Source: a virus (Duplodnaviria > Heunggongvirae > Uroviricota > Caudoviricetes). From it: DNA of 5,563 nucleotides. Location: the IMG/VR virus record IMGVR_UViG_2617270980_000005; one strand, 5' to 3'. The notes beneath the pieces are model-generated. The model searched no databases. It was not told the origin of the DNA and saw only the letters and a list, made by a program, of their open reading frames with translations. Below, one piece after another: positions 1-5,563 of the stretch. Every line of letters begins with the position of its first letter. Position 1 is the first letter of the stretch. Position numbers and translations under genes: made by a program.

Positions 1-229
1 CCAGCTCTTTCAGACGCTGACGTTCAGCGCTGGTGAGCCCACCATCACCGCCCCCGGTATCCCGCTCATGCTGGCGAACCCAGACACGCAGAGTCTCCGG
101 CGTACAGCCAATCTTTGGGGCAATGGAACAAATTGCCGCCCACTGTGAGTCATATTCATCCTGACTTTCCAGAACCATACGAATCGCCCGCTGACGGACT
201 TCGGGGGAAAAACGAGTATTTTTAGTCAT
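1..229 (-). CDS. IS3-family transposase OrfA, N-terminal 76 codons (partial, runs off window start)
   Basis: ATG at 229-227 on the minus strand, preceded by GAGG (AAAGAGGTAAACAGG ATG); open frame to position 1; HTH-type N-terminus characteristic of IS3-family OrfA. Confidence 0.8.
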
Positions 230-283
230 CCTGTTTACCTCTTTCTCAGGGAGTTTAGTCTCCAGGATTTCCGGGGCGGTTCA
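1..283 (-). mobile_element. IS3-family insertion sequence (IS629/IS1203-like), partial; one terminus at 283, element continues beyond the window start
   Basis: Reverse complement of 231-283 reads TGAACCGCCCCGGAAATCCTGGAGACTAAACTCCCTGAGAAAGAGGTAAACAG, a TGA-initiated terminal inverted repeat typical of IS3-family ends, followed immediately by the orfA start. The encoded protein begins [76 protein letters not shown], which I recognise from memory as IS629/IS1203-type OrfA. Exact IS name not verified. Confidence 0.8.
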
Positions 284-459
284 GAGTTGTATACATCGCC
301 ACTGGCAACCAGCTCTCTGGCAAGAGCGCTCATCAGATATCTTGTCGCACCTGTCTTGGCTTCCAGTTGCCGTAACGTCTCACGACCGCTCTGGCGCACG
401 AGTTCCACCACCTGCCCTTTAATTTTTTCCCGCTCTTCTTGTGTAAAAACTTTTGCCAC
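284..459 (-). pseudogene. 5' portion (58 codons) of a phage gene downstream of the replication initiator, interrupted by the IS; the 74-aa ORF in the track is a fusion whose last ~15 residues are encoded by the IS terminus
   Basis: GTG start at 459-457 preceded by GGGGGA Shine-Dalgarno (AAGGGGGACTT GTG), 40 bp after the initiator stop. Native frame reads MAKVFTQEEREKIKGQVVELVRQSGRETLRQLEAKTGATRYLMSALARELVASGDVYN, then crosses the IS boundary at 283/284 and stops inside the IS inverted repeat. Identity of the native protein not recognised. Confidence 0.5.
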
Positions 460-499: not shown

Positions 500-1465
500 T
501 TATCCCCTGAAACCAGGCGGAATTTCGGTATCCGGTTCAGAAATATGATTCACACAACGCTTTATTGGCGAACGCCCCAGGCGAATAACCAGCTCATCCC
601 ATTTTTCGCGAAGCTTTGACGGACTCATGATGTTTTTGACCCAGAATGGATCTCGCTGTACCCGACCAAACATTTCGCAAATTTGTCTGTGGCTTCTGCC
701 ATCCAGCATCCGCATTGTGCGCACGTCATTGGCCCAGGCAGTCCAGTTAGGCTCTTTTGGTCGCATGATCTCGCCATCATCACTGGCGGCCTGTTCGTAG
801 AGACCCACGATCCGCCCCCAGATCCACTGCGCACACGCCAAATCCTCCCTGCTACCCCACTGCCGTTTTTTCGCACTAAACACAACTGCGTCAGGGTGCC
901 GGATTAAAAAATCCTGTTCAGCCGTCTGCTGGTCCGGTTGCAAAGCTTCCGGACGAAAAGTGTTTTTATTCTCTGTAGTAATCTCTGTTGTATTCTCTGT
1001 AGGATCATCGGGCCATTTTGACCCGATGACATTGGGTCGTTTTGAACCAATGGAGCGTTTCATTTTGACCTCTTCCATCATGTCATTTTGACCTGATGGA
1101 GCGACGCATTTTGAACTGATGGATTCGCTCAATTTGCCACCATCTAAAAGATCGCTCCCATAGTTGATCGTGTAGAAATTGGTCATGTCGCGCTTTGATT
1201 TATTGAGCTTTTCGCAACGCAAAAGCCCCAGCGTTTTCAGACTTGCAAACGCGCGCTTTAACGTTGACTCTGACCAGAACGGGAACTGCGCCAGCCATTG
1301 TTCCGTTGTGTTGTAAATCCAGCGAACACCATCACATTCCATGCCGGAATTGGTATCTCTCAACCAGTAATGCAGTTGCTGCAACACAATGGCTTCGTTT
1401 AAGCCAATCTTCATCGCAAGCTGTGTGTTTATAACCAGTGGGCGTTCAGCAAAAAGAAGGCTCAT
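500..1465 (-). CDS. phage replication initiator / replisome organiser (lambda O-like role), 321 aa from ATG 1465; the track ORF extends to an upstream TTG at 1519
   Basis: Long minus-strand ORF in the position lambda O occupies (after cro-like and cII-position genes). It contains in-frame DNA iterons in the interdomain linker (…SIGSKRPNVIGSKWPDDPTENTTEITTENKNT…), a hallmark of O-type initiators whose origin lies inside the gene. Domain family not assigned from memory. Confidence 0.8.
   Translation of the reverse strand: MSLLFAERPLVINTQLAMKIGLNEAIVLQQLHYWLRDTNSGMECDGVRWIYNTTEQWLAQFPFWSESTLKRAFASLKTLGLLRCEKLNKSKRDMTNFYTINYGSDLLDGGKLSESISSKCVAPSGQNDMMEEVKMKRSIGSKRPNVIGSKWPDDPTENTTEITTENKNTFRPEALQPDQQTAEQDFLIRHPDAVVFSAKKRQWGSREDLACAQWIWGRIVGLYEQAASDDGEIMRPKEPNWTAWANDVRTMRMLDGRSHRQICEMFGRVQRDPFWVKNIMSPSKLREKWDELVIRLGRSPIKRCVNHISEPDTEIPPGFRG
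961..1125. repeat. candidate phage replication origin: five ~23-bp iterons (1009-1123) plus an adjacent AT-rich region with a 3x ~12-bp direct repeat (961-1008)
   Basis: Direct repeats with cores CATTTTGACC (1014), CGTTTTGAACC (1038), CATTTTGACC (1061), CATTTTGACC (1084), CATTTTGAAC (1107), spaced 23-24 bp. Several have inverted-repeat arms (ATCGGG..CCCGAT, CATTGG..CCAATG, CCATCA..TGATGG). Flanking 961-1008 is AT-rich with TCTCTGT(A/T)G three times. Confidence 0.65.
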
Positions 1466-1967
1466 AATTCCATCCAGCTTTTTGTTGGTATTGCTGTCGA
1501 TACGCAAGCTTGAAAGCAATTGCTTTTTCTATAAGTTCGTCAGTTTCACGATCTACAACGGCAGGATCTGCAAAAAGCAGTCCGGACTCCACCACATCGC
1601 CATATTCTTTATTTAACCCAGCGATCATGTACGTAATGCTCTTTCCGTCACTAATTTCACGATACAACCTGAAATCACTAATCCGGATAGCCTCCATAAT
1701 TGCAGGCACTAGCGCTGTGAACTTTTCACGCTTATCCCTGGTGTCGATAGCCTTCCAGCGTTCAAATATCTTCACTCGATTAACGCTAAGCGCTCGCTGA
1801 TCAACCGCGCCACCTTCATATGTGACACGCTGAACATCGATGTTCGGGCGCTCTTTCAAAGCCCAGAATGCTTCAGTGATTAATATCGTCGCCTGCTCCT
1901 GTGTCATTCCTGGTCGACATATCCAGGCATCCAGAGCCTCACGAGCCTGTTCAGGAGTGATTTTCAT
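1446..1967 (-). CDS. hypothetical prophage early protein, 173 aa, in the cII position between the cro-like gene and the replication initiator
   Basis: ATG at 1967-1965; overlaps the dicC 3' end by 17 bp and the initiator start by 20 bp (compact operon). Protein MKITPEQAREALDAWICRPGMTQEQATILITEAFWALKERPNIDVQRV… looks globular and charged-balanced. Likely the intact counterpart of the decayed ydfX/ydfW region of K-12 Qin (from memory, unverified). Confidence 0.7.
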   Translation of the reverse strand: MKITPEQAREALDAWICRPGMTQEQATILITEAFWALKERPNIDVQRVTYEGGAVDQRALSVNRVKIFERWKAIDTRDKREKFTALVPAIMEAIRISDFRLYREISDGKSITYMIAGLNKEYGDVVESGLLFADPAVVDRETDELIEKAIAFKLAYRQQYQQKAGWNYEPSFC

Positions 1968-2181
1968 TGTTCAACCGCCCCGCCCGCTTCGTCTTACGAT
2001 ATTCGTCATAAACTTTGGGATCATACTGAAGCTCCCCGCCAGATGCCTCCTGTAGACGCATCGCGCGACCTTCGGGAACTAAATCCCCTTTCCAGCTATA
2101 AAGCGAAGCCAAACGAATACCTGCTGCTTGTGCAAGTTTTGTTTTTGAACCGAAATACAAAAGAGCGTCAGTTTTAAGCAT
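1951..2181 (-). CDS. dicC: DicC, Cro-like HTH regulator of the Qin-type immunity switch (76 aa)
   Basis: ATG at 2181-2179 with AAGG 7-8 nt upstream on the minus strand; protein MLKTDALLYFGSKTKLAQAAGIRLASLYSWKGDLVPEGRAMRLQEASGG… matches remembered DicC; divergent from dicA. Confidence 0.9.
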   Translation of the reverse strand: MLKTDALLYFGSKTKLAQAAGIRLASLYSWKGDLVPEGRAMRLQEASGGELQYDPKVYDEYRKTKRAGRLNNENHS

Positions 2182-2264
2182 TTAAAACACCTTAGATGTT
2201 AGTCATGGCTAACAAAATAGATGTTAACAAAAACATAGTCAATACGATTTAGCATTAGCTAACT
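2182..2264. promoter_or_regulatory. divergent dicC/dicA promoter-operator region with three dyad-symmetric candidate operator sites
   Basis: Dyads TGTTAGtcatggCTAACA (2197-2214), ATGTTaacaaaAACAT (2221-2236), TTAGCattaGCTAA (2249-2262). Candidate PdicC on the minus strand: -35 TTGACT (complement of 2237-2242), 17-bp spacer, -10 TATTTT (complement of 2214-2219). The second dyad sits in the spacer and the first overlaps the -10/+1 region. Confidence 0.6.
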
Positions 2265-2672
2265 ATGGATACAAAAAATTTAACCATCGGCGAACGCATT
2301 AGGTATCGTCGGAAAAACCTCAAACACACCCAAAGGTCTCTTGCTAAAGCCCTGAAAATCTCCCATGTGTCTGTATCACAATGGGAACGGGATGATAGTG
2401 AACCTACAGGGAAGAACCTTTTTGCCCTCAGCAAAGTATTGCAATGCTCACCAACATGGATTCTATTTGGCGATGAAGACAAGCAACCAACACCACCTGT
2501 TGAGAAGCCGGTTGCCTTAGCCCCCAAAGAACTAGAGCTCCTTGAGCTGTTTAATGCACTGCCAGAATCAGAACAGGATACCCAGCTCGCCGAAATGCGA
2601 GCTCGAGTAAAAAATTTCAATAAACTCTTTGAAGAATTACTAAAAGCCCGTCAGCGGACAAATAAAAGATAA
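2265..2672 (+). CDS. dicA: DicA, XRE/CI-family HTH repressor of the dicB operon (135 aa)
   Basis: Protein MDTKNLTIGERIRYRRKNLKHTQRSLAKALKISHVSVSQWERDDSEPTGKNLFALSKVLQCSPTWILFGDEDKQ…KARQRTNKR matches remembered DicA essentially full length; N-terminal HTH; divergent from dicC. Confidence 0.95.
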   Translation: MDTKNLTIGERIRYRRKNLKHTQRSLAKALKISHVSVSQWERDDSEPTGKNLFALSKVLQCSPTWILFGDEDKQPTPPVEKPVALAPKELELLELFNALPESEQDTQLAEMRARVKNFNKLFEELLKARQRTNKR

Positions 2673-2700
2673 CATCATCAATGAGTTATCTTTTATTATA
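2664..2700 (+). terminator. weak candidate intrinsic terminator overlapping the dicA stop
   Basis: Inverted repeat AAAAGATAAC (2664-2673) / GTTATCTTTT (2685-2694) with an 11-nt loop, followed by ATTATAT. The stem is AT-rich, so termination efficiency is doubtful. Confidence 0.3.
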
Positions 2701-2706
2701 TCAATT

Positions 2707-2762
2707 ATGTTAGCCATAACATACAAAATCACTTGACCAATATGTTAGTTATGACTAATCTT
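2707..2762 (+). promoter_or_regulatory. candidate dicB-operon promoter (PdicB) with two operator-like dyads
   Basis: -35 TTGACC (2734-2739), 16-bp spacer, -10 TAATCT (2756-2761). Dyads ATGTTAgccaTAACAT (2707-2722) and TTAGTtatgACTAA (2745-2758) share half-sites with the dicA/dicC intergenic dyads; the second lies between -35 and -10. Confidence 0.55.
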
Positions 2763-2838
2763 GTTTACATCAACACACCGCACGGTGTTCTCAGCAAACA
2801 GTTCCGCCACCCCGGCGTTAAGGGGAAATGAGGTCAGC

Positions 2839-2994
2839 ATGGATACTATCGATCTTGGCAACAGCGAATCTCTGGTATGTGGCGTGTTCCCCAATCAGGA
2901 CGGCACGTTCACCGCGATGACGTATACCAAAAGCAAAACGTTTAAAACCGAAAATGGTGCCCGTCGCTGGCTGGAAAGAAACTCAGGTGAGTGA
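2839..2994 (+). CDS. ydfA: YdfA-like small protein (51 aa), first gene of the dicB operon
   Basis: ATG 2839 preceded by GAGG (AAATGAGGTCAGC ATG); protein MDTIDLGNSESLVCGVFPNQDGTFTAMTYTKSKTFKTENGARRWLERNSGE matches remembered YdfA length and sequence. The track ORF start at 2761 is an upstream in-frame TTG without RBS. Confidence 0.85.
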   Translation: MDTIDLGNSESLVCGVFPNQDGTFTAMTYTKSKTFKTENGARRWLERNSGE

Positions 2995-2995
2995 T

Positions 2996-3571
2996 ATGGA
3001 TTTCGACACAATCATGGAAAAGGCTTACGAAGAATACTTCGAAGGCCTTGCCGAAGGCGAAGAAGCTCTCAGCTTCAGTGAGTTTAAACAGGCACTCAGA
3101 ATAAGAATGTGCTCTCACAATGACGCGGAGCACAAATATGAGAAGCAAAATCAGACCGCAGAAAATTTTGTTCTGGAACCCGGAGAAACGCTTTTCAAAA
3201 TTCCCGTTACGTGCCCCATTTGCGGTTTTACATCAGAAGAACTTGACGACTCCTGTAACAATCAGGAAACAACCAAGTATGTCGAAGATGATACCGAGTG
3301 CGCACGAAGAACGATTATATCCACGAGTCCAAACTCCAGGACCAATAAATCTCACCTTGAGAGGGTAATTAATCCACTCCCCCAAACCAATAAAAAAGAT
3401 GCCGGAGGACAAAAAACCCAATGGAACAACGGGATATCTGTCAAAAAAAGACGTTCCATTAAAGACAAACAACGCAGCGCCAACAACTGTAAGCGCTTTA
3501 TACCAGTAATCAATTTTCATGTTCTTAAGCGGATTTATTGGTGGTTGCGACATTGCTTAATGAATCCTTAA
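2996..3571 (+). CDS. ydfB: YdfB-like protein, here as an extended 191-codon frame (acidic N-terminal region, CPICG..C motif); 3' extent uncertain
   Basis: ATG 2996 with AGGTGAG Shine-Dalgarno, start coupled to the ydfA stop (TGAtATG). N-terminal ~105 aa look protein-like (MDFDTIMEKAYEEYFEGLAEGEEALSFSEFKQAL…VTCPICGFTSEELDDSC…). The C-terminal half is low-complexity K/N/R/S-rich with rare Arg/Ile codons and is overlapped by an alternative + frame (3138-3368) and a minus-strand ORF (3233-3553), so the true coding end is unresolved. Confidence 0.5.
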   Translation: MDFDTIMEKAYEEYFEGLAEGEEALSFSEFKQALRIRMCSHNDAEHKYEKQNQTAENFVLEPGETLFKIPVTCPICGFTSEELDDSCNNQETTKYVEDDTECARRTIISTSPNSRTNKSHLERVINPLPQTNKKDAGGQKTQWNNGISVKKRRSIKDKQRSANNCKRFIPVINFHVLKRIYWWLRHCLMNP

Positions 3572-3830
3572 AACTGTGGTGATTTTAAGGATACCACCTC
3601 GCCTGACGTGGTTAAAAGCAGGCACACAACACGAAAGCGCACGGCGAAGTTCGTCTCACTGTACGGTGTCGTTAAATTTAATTCGACCGTGCGCTTCCGG
3701 TTGTGGCAACCCGCGAAATGGCGCGGCGGTAAGTATGGCGGGGTTATTCCTTCCCCGTTGAGGACACCGAGTTGTCAGGTTGACCATACGCTTAAGTGAC
3801 AACCCCGCTGCAACGCCCTCTGTTATCAAT

Positions 3831-3883
3831 TTTCTGGTGACGTTTGGCGGTATCAGTTTTACTCCGTGACTGCTCTGCCGCCG
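3831..3883 (+). ncRNA. dicF: DicF small regulatory RNA (about 53 nt)
   Basis: TTTCTGGTGACGTTTGGCGGTATCAGTTTTACTCCGTGACTGCTCTGCCGCCG matches the remembered DicF sequence nearly base for base; located between the ydfB/ydfC region and dicB as in the Qin dicB operon; followed by a T5 run. Confidence 0.9.
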
Positions 3884-3888
3884 TTTTT
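3846..3888 (+). terminator. candidate intrinsic terminator forming the DicF 3' end
   Basis: GGCGG (3846-3850) pairs with CCGCC (3878-3882) enclosing an inner CAGT/ACTG helix, followed by GTTTTT (3883-3888). The stem is imperfect, hence moderate confidence. Confidence 0.45.
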
Positions 3889-4057
3889 AAAGTGAATTTT
3901 GTGATGCGGTGAATGCGGCTAAGCGCACGCGGAACAGTTAAAACCAAATACAGTGTTATGGGTGGATTCTCTGTATCCGGCGTTAATTGTTAACTGGTTA
4001 ACGTCACCTGGAGGCACCAGGCACTGCATCACAAAATTCATTGTTGAGGACGCGATA

Positions 4058-4246
4058 ATGAAAACGTTATTACCAAACGTTAATACGTCTGAAGGTTGTT
4101 TTGAAATTGGTGTCACTATCAGTAACCCTGTATTTACTGAAGATGCCATTAACAAGAGAAAACAAGAACGGGAGCTATTAAATAAAATATGCATTGTTTC
4201 AATGCTGGCTCGTTTACGTCTGATGCCAAAAGGATGTGCACAATGA
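4058..4246 (+). CDS. dicB: DicB, cell-division inhibitor (62 aa)
   Basis: ATG 4058 with GAGGA 9 nt upstream; protein MKTLLPNVNTSEGCFEIGVTISNPVFTEDAINKRKQERELLNKICIVSMLARLRLMPKGCAQ matches remembered DicB. The longer 97-aa track ORF (3953) is an in-frame 5' extension without RBS. Confidence 0.95.
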   Translation: MKTLLPNVNTSEGCFEIGVTISNPVFTEDAINKRKQERELLNKICIVSMLARLRLMPKGCAQ

Positions 4247-4434
4247 ATTCAGCATTTGCGCTTGTTCTGACAGTTTTTCTTGTTTCCGGAGAGCCAGTTG
4301 ATATTGCAGTCAGTGTTCACAGGACAATGCAGGAGTGTATGACTGCAGCAACCGAACAGAAAATTCCCGGTAACTGTTACCCGGTCGATAAAGTTATTCA
4401 CCAGGATAATATCGAAATCCCGGCAGGTCTTTAA
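4243..4434 (+). CDS. ydfD: YdfD, small prophage lysis protein with N-terminal hydrophobic segment (63 aa)
   Basis: ATG 4243 overlaps the dicB stop (ATGA); AAGGA 9 nt upstream; protein MNSAFALVLTVFLVSGEPVDIAVSVHRTMQECMTAATEQKIPGNCYPVDKVIHQDNIEIPAGL. Confidence 0.9.
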   Translation: MNSAFALVLTVFLVSGEPVDIAVSVHRTMQECMTAATEQKIPGNCYPVDKVIHQDNIEIPAGL

Positions 4435-4527
4435 AACAGTTCCGTAATAAATATCCGGTTTCATTCTTATATGCCAGCAATGGCAGGGATTTGTTCATCC
4501 TTAAATCTGTCATGAGGTTAAAACAAA

Positions 4528-5563
4528 ATGAGTAAAGTCTTTATTTGCGCCGCTATTCCTGACGAACTGGCAACAAGGGAAGAAGGCGCTGTGGCTGTAG
4601 CCACAGCCATTGAAGCTGGCGACGAACGCCGTGCTCGAGCAAAATTTCACTGGCAGTTCCTGGAACATTATCCGGCTGCTCAGGACTGCGCTTATAAATT
4701 TATTGTCTGCGAGGATAAACCTGGCATACCCCGCCCTGCCCTCGATTCATGGGATGCTGAATATATGCAGGAAAACCGCTGGGATGAGGAGTCTGCTTCT
4801 TTTGTCCCGGTTGAGACTGAATCCGATCCGATGAACGTCACTTTTGACAAGCTGGCCCCTGAAGTACAGAACGCTGTCATGGTTAAGTTCGACACATGTG
4901 AAAACATCACCGTTGATATGGTTATTAGCGCACAGGAATTGTTGCAGGAAGACATGGCAACATTCGACGGACATATCGTTGAAGCGTTGATGAAAATGCC
5001 AGAAGTTAACGCCATGTATCCGGAGCTTAAGTTGCACGCCATTGGGTGGGTTAAGCATAAATGTATTCCTGGTGCTAAATGGCCCGAAATTCAGGCAGAG
5101 ATGCGCATCTGGAAAAAACGTCGCGAAGGTGAACGCAAGGAAACCGGAAAATACACGTCTGTTGTTGATCTCGCCCGCGCCAAAGCCAATCAACAGTACA
5201 CTGAAAATTCAACAGGAAAAATCAGCCCGGTCATTGCTGCCATTCATCGCGAATACAAGCAGACATGGAAAACACTGGATGACGAACTGGCCTACGCTCT
5301 CTGGCCTGGTGATGTAGATGCCGGAAACATTGACAGCAGCATCCATCGCTGGGCAAAAAATGAAGTTATCGACAACGACCGCGAAGACTGGAAGCGTATC
5401 TCGGCATCAATGCGCAAACAGCCTGATGCCCTTCGCTACGACCGCCAGACTATTTTTGGCCTTGTCCGTGAACGTCCGATCGACATTCACAAAGACCCTG
5501 TGGCACTGAACAAATACATTACTGAATACCTGACTACAAAGGGCGTGTTTGAAGATGAAGGAA
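4528..5563 (+). CDS. ydfE: YdfE-like prophage protein, at least 345 aa, 3' end beyond the window; function unknown
   Basis: ATG 4528 with GAGG upstream (CATGAGGTTAAAACAAA ATG). I translated the frame codon by codon to position 5563 with no stop (MSKVFICAAIPDELATREEGAVAVATAIEAGDERRARAKFHWQFLEHYPAAQDCAYKF…KGVFEDEG). It is missing from the ORF track only because it has no stop in the window. N-terminus matches what I recall of YdfE. Confidence 0.85.
   Translation, partial: MSKVFICAAIPDELATREEGAVAVATAIEAGDERRARAKFHWQFLEHYPAAQDCAYKFIVCEDKPGIPRPALDSWDAEYMQENRWDEESASFVPVETESDPMNVTFDKLAPEVQNAVMVKFDTCENITVDMVISAQELLQEDMATFDGHIVEALMKMPEVNAMYPELKLHAIGWVKHKCIPGAKWPEIQAEMRIWKKRREGERKETGKYTSVVDLARAKANQQYTENSTGKISPVIAAIHREYKQTWKTLDDELAYALWPGDVDAGNIDSSIHRWAKNEVIDNDREDWKRISASMRKQPDALRYDRQTIFGLVRERPIDIHKDPVALNKYITEYLTTKGVFEDEG

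Follow-up and report, generated by a model that had tools for sequence, protein, structure and literature searches.

The virus record IMGVR_UViG_2617270980_000005 (IMG/VR; Caudoviricetes) provides a stretch of 5563 nt, hereafter the window, whose right end is occupied by an open reading frame (ORF) that begins at position 4528 and runs off the last base. The question raised by this locus is what the complete gene encodes and what role its N-terminal part, the part inside the window, may play. We identified the frame as the first 42 % of an 823-codon gene, the intact form of ydfE, of which Escherichia coli K-12 retains a fragment. By sequence comparison, the product should be a RecE-type scaffold joined to a C-terminal exonuclease of the DEDDh type. 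The explanation as a whole, in which the head of the protein acts as a docking module and the exonuclease trims DNA ends for RecBCD, is one that we hold with moderate confidence.

The open frame and its continuation beyond the window

Translation of the plus strand from ATG 4528 gave 345 codons without a stop through position 5562; from the base composition of the window, the chance of so many open codons in a row is approximately 1.5e-8. In this frame, a TAA is located at 4519 and the earliest start codon is ATG 4528. The mechanical ORF list does not contain the ORF because the list tool omits ORFs running off the source, as the original prediction had supposed from the sequence alone. The ratio of non-synonymous to synonymous substitution rates (dN/dS) of the window part was 0.15 against phage HannyBb and 0.13 against PPompW, and the window part is thus coding sequence under purifying selection. 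The acidic and Trp-rich composition that had been read by eye was also observed: the 345-aa product contains 61 D+E and 45 K+R (net −16) and 10 Trp (2.9 %), with an isoelectric point of approximately 5.1. The gene and the ribosome-binding site that had been noted ahead of it are located as follows.

4514–4517, plus strand: Shine–Dalgarno-like GAGG, read from the sequence, 10 nt before ATG 4528
4528–5563, plus strand: opening 345 codons and one further base of the predicted 823-codon exonuclease gene (intact ydfE), based on translation and identity to NZ_CM128582.1

Window bases 501–5563 showed 100 % identity to E. coli strain 600029 (NZ_CM128582.1), while the first ~500 bases differ. In this genome, which is the best proxy for the downstream sequence, the frame continues with no interruption just past the window and forms a coding sequence (CDS) of 2472 nt (823 aa, WP_053296083.1, annotated ‘exonuclease’). 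After a further 72 nt it is followed by xis and then int, and the prophage end adjoins rspB, the K-12 Qin site. We infer the intactness of the source copy beyond base 5563 from the identical genome rather than seeing it directly, because the insertion sequence (IS) junction at the window's left end is not reproduced in one piece in complete genomes (no match as a single piece in the complete E. coli genome collection). A reading of the ORF as a piece of some known gene in another frame was rejected, since its frame and start codon and its identity to the annotated CDS are all in agreement.

The gene was uninterrupted in all 80 of the IMG/VR loci fetched, which are close relatives and form the basis of all locus statistics below. 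Copies with at least 80 % gene coverage were detected in 3533 of the 5426 complete E. coli genomes, about two-thirds, with as many as 10 matching places in one genome, and the gene was found in the isolated viable phages HannyBb, Tritos and mEp460. The description ‘uncharacterised’ fits the function, which is a predicted one, but not the gene, which is already catalogued in RefSeq (full product ‘exonuclease’ or ‘3′-5′ exonuclease’), in PHROG 2082 and in Pfam. The gene is therefore already known and very common, and as a discovery it is ordinary, with a predicted function; the interest is left in its N-terminal region, in the swapping of effector domains and in the Rad52 fold of the RecE-2 proteins described below.

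Domain architecture of the 823-aa protein

The window part is divided into four segments, the first two of which form head A (aa 1–222).

4528–4827, plus strand: aa 1–100, small alpha/beta (ferredoxin-like) subdomain, probably Pfam YdfE_N
4828–5193, plus strand: aa 101–222, helical subdomain in the AlphaFold2 model, probably Pfam YdfE_C
5194–5235, plus strand: aa 223–236, disordered linker from head A to module B (pLDDT, the predicted local distance difference test score, below 50)
5236–5562, plus strand: aa 237–345, helical module B (pLDDT 89–97; NCBIfam, BLASTP and module map)

The AlphaFold2 model of the window part was confident (mean pLDDT 89.1), with alpha/beta structure at aa 1–100, helices at ~105–206, disorder at 223–236 and helices at ~245–340; the segment 223–236 is also gap-rich and length-variable in the family alignment. 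A search of the 345-aa product with hmmscan detected no Pfam family, because the Pfam copy used predates the YdfE_N and YdfE_C models. Precomputed matches to both models (PF27430 and PF27432) exist for database proteins whose first 261 aa are 100 % identical, and together with 99.6 % identity to residues 1–256 of K-12 YdfE this bears out the description of the ORF as YdfE-like. An NCBIfam scan of the same product gave a RecE match only, below threshold, in which positions 271–366 of model NF007259 match aa 246–340.

Outside the window, aa 642–813 of the full protein matched PF16473 (Rv2179c-like 3′-5′ exoribonuclease domain) with 225.6 bits against a cut-off of 27, over model positions 2–177 of 177. 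All five residues of the DEDDh motifs are present in IDLET (D646, E648), NFD (D746) and HNALDDA (H796, D801); D646 and E648 were aligned to D7 and E9 of DexA, while D746, H796 and D801 were assigned by motif, not by structure alignment. When the full protein was searched against PDB sequences, DexA alone was matched, via the C-terminal domain (8KEL, E 2.9e-7). The test for nuclease activity that had been suggested for the ORF applies to the C-terminal domain, and the window part looks non-catalytic.

Between the two parts, aa 346–640 form a low-complexity and very acidic linker (net −32; whole protein −61) with a zinc-ribbon-like CxxC...CxxC motif at aa 551–566. Within the linker (L001:10164-11050), short stretches such as GPFYF...GRANKL and the CxxC-x7-CxxC ribbon are conserved in RecE and in other members of the family; from their sequence, they resemble short linear interaction motifs or a small element that binds zinc.

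Relation to RecE of the Rac prophage

A BLASTP alignment of aa 262–625 with residues 278–591 of K-12 RecE showed 38 % identity (E 6e-60), and HHalign aligned head residues 9–204 with RecE 7–221 (probability 97.1 %, E 5.6e-11, 186 columns), using profiles that we built from few sequences. From these two matches, essentially all of aa 1–625 corresponds to the N-terminal region of RecE, and the counterpart of module B in RecE lies at ~278–370. By sequence, the protein is a RecE relative along its non-catalytic length, followed by a predicted DEDDh exonuclease. The likeness extends to the SRGEF(V/E) motif, the CxxC...CxxC ribbon, the acidic linker and the operon position.

In contrast, the two proteins differ at the C terminus. 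RecE carries a PD-(D/E)XK 5′-3′ nuclease, whereas the Qin-type protein carries a DEDDh exonuclease, predicted to be 3′-5′. The RecE PD-(D/E)XK domain (RecE ~600–866, PF12684) gave no Pfam match here, and a phmmer search with RecE 600–866 was empty for this protein while it was positive in relatives. In Rac, recT overlaps the end of recE; here xis follows directly instead, and RecT was detected in none of the 80 loci. These observations indicate that the protein is a RecE-type scaffold in which the catalytic domain has given way to a nuclease with an unrelated fold and, judged from its family, the opposite predicted polarity.

Many records, several of them from phages, carry the name ‘exodeoxyribonuclease VIII’. 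This label is misleading, because the RecE nuclease is lacking and the NCBIfam equivalog cut-off is failed: the RecE equivalog NF007259 was matched over model positions 271–602 (of 877) only, with 269.2 bits against a cut-off of 1269, and no membership test supports the label. For annotation, records named in this way would describe a protein without the RecE nuclease and with the opposite predicted polarity, and K-12 ‘ydfE’ ought to be understood as the head part of an exonuclease gene.

Conservation and fold of the head

In an exhaustive HMMER search of 1.84 billion representatives the window part matched 166 clusters only (E ≤ 1e-3), and a Foldseek search of its model against BFVD gave nothing at E ≤ 1e-3. 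In an alignment of 22 sequences (20–44 % identity), conservation was seen almost solely at hydrophobic and structural positions; the invariant or near-invariant columns were A30, A36, P49, P70, L250, E253, A255, A276, L302, R306 and L335, and no conserved catalytic residues were found in the head. The conservation pattern, the acidity and the lack of a catalytic fold relative point to a role of the head and module B that is not enzymatic.

Nuclease-independent activity of the N-terminal region against the host or against restriction, for example as a DNA mimic, would also suit an acidic head, an early-operon position and a fold without a known relative, but we rate it as highly improbable.

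Exchange of effector domains on a common head

A module map of the long representatives in the 1.84-billion library distinguished a YdfE-type and a RecE-type head and showed module B in all of them. The C-terminal effectors fall into four forms: the DEDDh exonuclease, the RecE-type PD-(D/E)XK nuclease (for P0126, this was confirmed as DUF3799), a third domain (type-3) with the invariant motif KKSLTDA..K.LS.LGF, and a fourth domain. The last was observed on the same head in P0124, P0210, P0218, P0258 and P0259 (PHROG 26058); it shows the motifs ALDDLLSGRTDVM... and LTYQQQLTIAAL.G.CANPA and has no Pfam match.

For the type-3 C-terminal domain, a fold search of the predicted model indicated a Rad52/Sak-type annealase fold. 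A profile of this domain detected no relative among PDB sequences, so that Rad52 was seen by the fold search alone. Examples of type-3 are gp07 of Pectobacterium phage ZF40 and one Stenotrophomonas phage protein, whose genes lie in the same operon slot, each with a Sipho_Gp157 gene after it. The Rad52-fold domain is confined to these type-3 relatives; in the Qin-type protein it was detected neither by the module map nor at the 80 loci.

The ZF40 and Stenotrophomonas proteins seem to correspond to RecE-2 of PMC12315714. That study describes RecE-2 as distantly related to RecE, with no nuclease and no known role, and scores ZF40 as annealase-negative. RecE-2 (ZF40 gp07, PHROG 2489) resembles the Qin-type protein in head A, module B and the operon slot between the repressor gene and int. 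It differs in its C terminus, which is not a nuclease and has the predicted Rad52/Sak-type fold, and in the Sipho_Gp157 gene that follows, whereas none follows the Qin-type gene. The Sipho_Gp157 (PF05565) gene was located directly after the annealase-type RecE-2 gene in two distant phages (L005:7112-7627, L006:7106-7672), with stop and start overlapping or abutting, which suggests a conserved two-gene unit.

Since one and the same head is joined to unrelated effectors of three kinds, namely the RecE nuclease, the DEDDh nuclease and the Rad52-fold annealase, we propose that the head and module B form a protein–protein docking or assembly module. In its widest form, the proposal is that YdfE_N, YdfE_C and module B constitute an effector-independent docking module of a ‘RecE superfamily’, which would deliver a 5′-3′ nuclease, a 3′-5′ nuclease or a Rad52-fold annealase to one common partner. 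We put this forward tentatively, as a possibility that falls somewhat short of probable. If true, the RecE-2 proteins would be unrecognised annealases, phages such as ZF40 that are scored annealase-negative would encode one after all, and the partner of the head would also explain the role of the ~600 N-terminal residues of RecE. According to a 2023 review, this region of RecE is without assigned function, yet full-length RecE boosts linear–linear recombination (PMC11611040). Full-length RecE underlies ‘direct cloning’ recombineering by this linear–linear route, and a homologue of its N-terminal region that is under purifying selection and joined to three effectors offers a handle on the role of that region.

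The Qin-type locus and the proposed mechanism

The window covers part of a lambdoid E. coli prophage of the Qin type, namely its immunity and early-left region, with the gene set dicC–dicA–ydfA–dicF–dicB–ydfD. The features upstream of the exonuclease ORF are as follows.

Minus strand of the window: O-type replication gene, YdaT-family gene and dicC
2265–2672, plus strand: dicA
Plus strand, between dicA and the DicF RNA: ydfA, then a YdfB-like ORF
3832–3883, plus strand: DicF small RNA (Rfam RF00039, 72.5 bits, full length)
4058–4246, plus strand: dicB, cell-division inhibitor (annotation of the identical genome), upstream of the exonuclease ORF in a shared operon
4243–4434, plus strand: ydfD, lysis protein (annotation of the identical genome), directly upstream of the exonuclease ORF

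The DicF RNA lies 5′ of dicB in a K-12-like arrangement. Between ydfD and the exonuclease start there are 93 nt in the window and 95–99 nt in the IMG/VR loci (tblastn coordinates), and promoter and terminator scans of this gap gave signals at chance level. The dicB promoter is reported to drive transcription of dicB, ydfD and ydfE and to have DicA as its repressor (bioRxiv 10.1101/2024.09.21.614188); expression of the exonuclease is therefore expected upon derepression or induction.

The order dicA ... dicB–ydfD–exonuclease–xis–int without an annealase gene was found in three annotated contexts, and dicB and ydfD were directly upstream in 78 of the 80 loci. The ORF had been placed in a slot for recombination or anti-host functions, and this position in the lambdoid early-left operon, downstream of dicB and ydfD and upstream of xis and int, agrees with that placement. 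RecT, a Rad52-like domain and Gp157 were each absent near the gene in all 80 loci (flanks of at most 6 kb).

At the DNA level, the gene of phage Tritos shows 97.6 % identity. In PMC12315714, Tritos serves as prototype for a class that has only a nuclease, with no annealase and no anti-RecBCD gene, and with 7–21 top-strand Chi sites. The Tritos nuclease and the Qin-type gene are alike in these absences and in their position near int; DnaQ-like nucleases are described there in lambdoid early-left operons, often close to int, and phages without Rec modules are proposed to exploit RecBCD and Chi. The RecE-type N-terminal region of the Tritos nuclease and its relation to YdfE are not described in the main text of that study. 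The gene is the sole candidate for a DNA-transaction function in this Chi-rich lambdoid class, which lacks annealase and anti-RecBCD genes and is apparently reliant on RecBCD.

We propose the following mechanism. The docking module would bring a tethered DNA-end-processing domain to a common partner or site, and a long, flexible acidic tether would join it to the exchangeable effector. In the Qin/Tritos type, the effector would be a predicted 3′-5′ exonuclease; more weakly, and speculatively, it may trim the 3′ single-stranded tails of phage DNA ends or recombination intermediates after induction. Exonucleases that act 3′-5′ on single-stranded DNA can blunt ends for RecBCD. Ends trimmed in this way would stay usable by the host RecBCD–Chi–RecA pathway, rather than supplying a phage annealase.

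Several points weigh against this explanation. The activity, polarity and substrate of the exonuclease are read from family membership, the docking module is proposed through guilt by fusion, and end trimming for RecBCD is drawn from general knowledge of the single-stranded DNA exonucleases of E. coli. The HHalign link between the head and RecE depends on the self-built profiles mentioned above. Chi sites numbered zero in the window and few in the fetched flanks. The absence of Red-beta, Erf and Sak4 comes from the annotations of three loci and the table of PMC12315714 only, the screen having used RecT, Rad52-like and Gp157 queries. In addition, DnaQ-like nucleases are described as usually inhibitory to homologous recombination (PMC12315714).

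Alternative explanations

The first alternative is an HREX-like defence, in which a DexA-type exonuclease would degrade the 5-hydroxymethylcytosine (5hmC) DNA of superinfecting T-even phages, the head would sense or localise, and the gene would confer prophage immunity beside DicB. We consider this unlikely. It draws on the operon shared with dicB, a gene that also excludes some phages, and on the finding that T4 DexA is the closest solved relative of the exonuclease domain. EcD, a standalone E. coli homologue of DexA, cuts 5hmC-DNA only and protects against T4 even at leaky expression; in the same study, 8KEL and 8KEN are identified as T4 DexA (PMC12153337), and the S87A and D90A substitutions are visible in the 8KEN sequence. 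T4 DexA and EcD are like the C-terminal domain in PF16473 membership and DEDDh catalytic residues. They are, however, standalone proteins of ~190–227 aa without the 640-residue RecE-type region, and the similarity is distant (E ~3e-7).

Further details separate the domain from EcD. According to its primer sequence, EcD starts with MIDTET, a start found in none of the 120 closest homologues of the domain (at least 57 % identity); EcD is therefore merely a distant relative. A search for EcD by its primers gave a single viral-contig match, without the forward primer site, which we attribute to chance. Recognition of 5hmC involves a Trp and DexA D169, and D169 lies beyond the alignable region, as the alignment to DexA ends at residue 162. 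The equivalent of the DexA tetramer residue D90 is Asp (in PLDDALL) and not the Ala that defines EcD-like dimers, although Ala occurs one position later and the HMMER alignment is uncertain by one residue. In addition, DicA represses the operon in lysogens, and the fusions of the head to the RecE nuclease and to an annealase in relatives would be left unexplained.

Standalone versions of the DEDDh domain (180–190 aa, typical start MN(H/N)LMIDLETMG; P0284, P0294, P0311-P0313, P0318 and P0342-P0379) occur widely, with 57–90 % identity, across Escherichia, Salmonella, Klebsiella, Enterobacter and Citrobacter. The nuclease is therefore found as a gene of its own besides its fusion to the RecE scaffold.

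The second alternative, a recombination exonuclease like RecE or lambda Exo that obtains its annealase in trans from another prophage (such as Rac RecT) or from the host, is in our view quite unlikely. The RecE-type architecture across aa 1–625, the canonical Rec-module position and the wide annotation as ‘exodeoxyribonuclease VIII’ would suit it, and several lambdoid prophages per E. coli genome are common (see the number of matching places given above). On the other hand, the fold predicts 3′-5′ polarity and thus 5′ tails, the wrong substrate for RecT or Beta, which anneal at 3′ tails. The catalytic domain of RecE, which is genetically sufficient (PMC11611040), is absent. The RecT, Rad52-like and Gp157 queries detected no annealase at the 80 loci, and the Tritos class is scored as annealase-negative in PMC12315714.

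The third alternative is nucleotide scavenging, in which the exonuclease would turn host DNA fragments into mononucleotides after induction in the manner of T4 DexA. The homology is compatible with this, since the established roles of DexA include host DNA scavenging (PMC12153337), as is expression from an early lytic operon. However, a 640-residue RecE-type scaffold would be superfluous for scavenging, given that the domain exists in standalone versions of 180–190 aa, and the head is under strong purifying selection. In addition, no temperate lambdoid phage is known to degrade the host chromosome, and we regard this reading as very unlikely.

That the gene is a decaying, non-functional prophage remnant as in K-12 is scarcely credible and for the gene family largely refuted: the K-12 truncation, the PPompW frameshifts and the 392-aa deletion variant described below, together with the IS that the window's own prophage carries at its left end, are set against the low dN/dS, the uninterrupted IMG/VR copies, the many genomes and the viable phages reported above.

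Truncated and decayed copies

The original prediction described K-12 ydfE as a truncated gene and suggested that the window held a more intact version, and both statements proved correct. K-12 ydfE (b1577, annotated as a pseudogene) is the same gene at the same site, next to rspB, with the same dicB and ydfD upstream. It reads into IS2E after codon 256, with loss of module B, the linker and the exonuclease domain, whereas the window copy continues. By this comparison, K-12 ydfE is a truncated remnant of the predicted 823-residue exonuclease protein.

Two other forms of decay were observed. In P0001 (392 aa; L089:4001-5179, L090:4001-5179), an in-frame internal deletion fuses YdfE_N/YdfE_C directly to the Rv2179c-like exonuclease domain; this allele is located within a decayed Qin remnant without xis and int, where the gene adjoins rspA/rspB. 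The PPompW prophage copies are frameshifted (L007:4558-7025). The gene thus decays by several independent routes.

Other features of the window

At the window's left end, positions 2–229 (minus strand) hold the opening 76 codons of an IS3-family transposase OrfA (HTH_Tnp_1; IS1203/IS629-like per hit annotations). It abuts a DUF977 gene at 238–459 (minus strand) that is cut to the first ~58 of 134 profile positions, and this arrangement therefore indicates an IS insertion into the prophage replication region.

Between dicA and dicB, RefSeq places just a ‘ydfB, incomplete’ fragment in the region of window 2996–3571, and ~960 bp (window ~3097–4058) are without a protein gene in that annotation. 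A hydrophobic 106-aa ORF with no family match (3236–3553, minus strand) lies antisense to a 191-aa ORF on the plus strand (2996–3571). The latter matched PHROG 35040 over its full length (E 2e-140), is YdfB-like over its first 34 aa and contains a CPICG motif.

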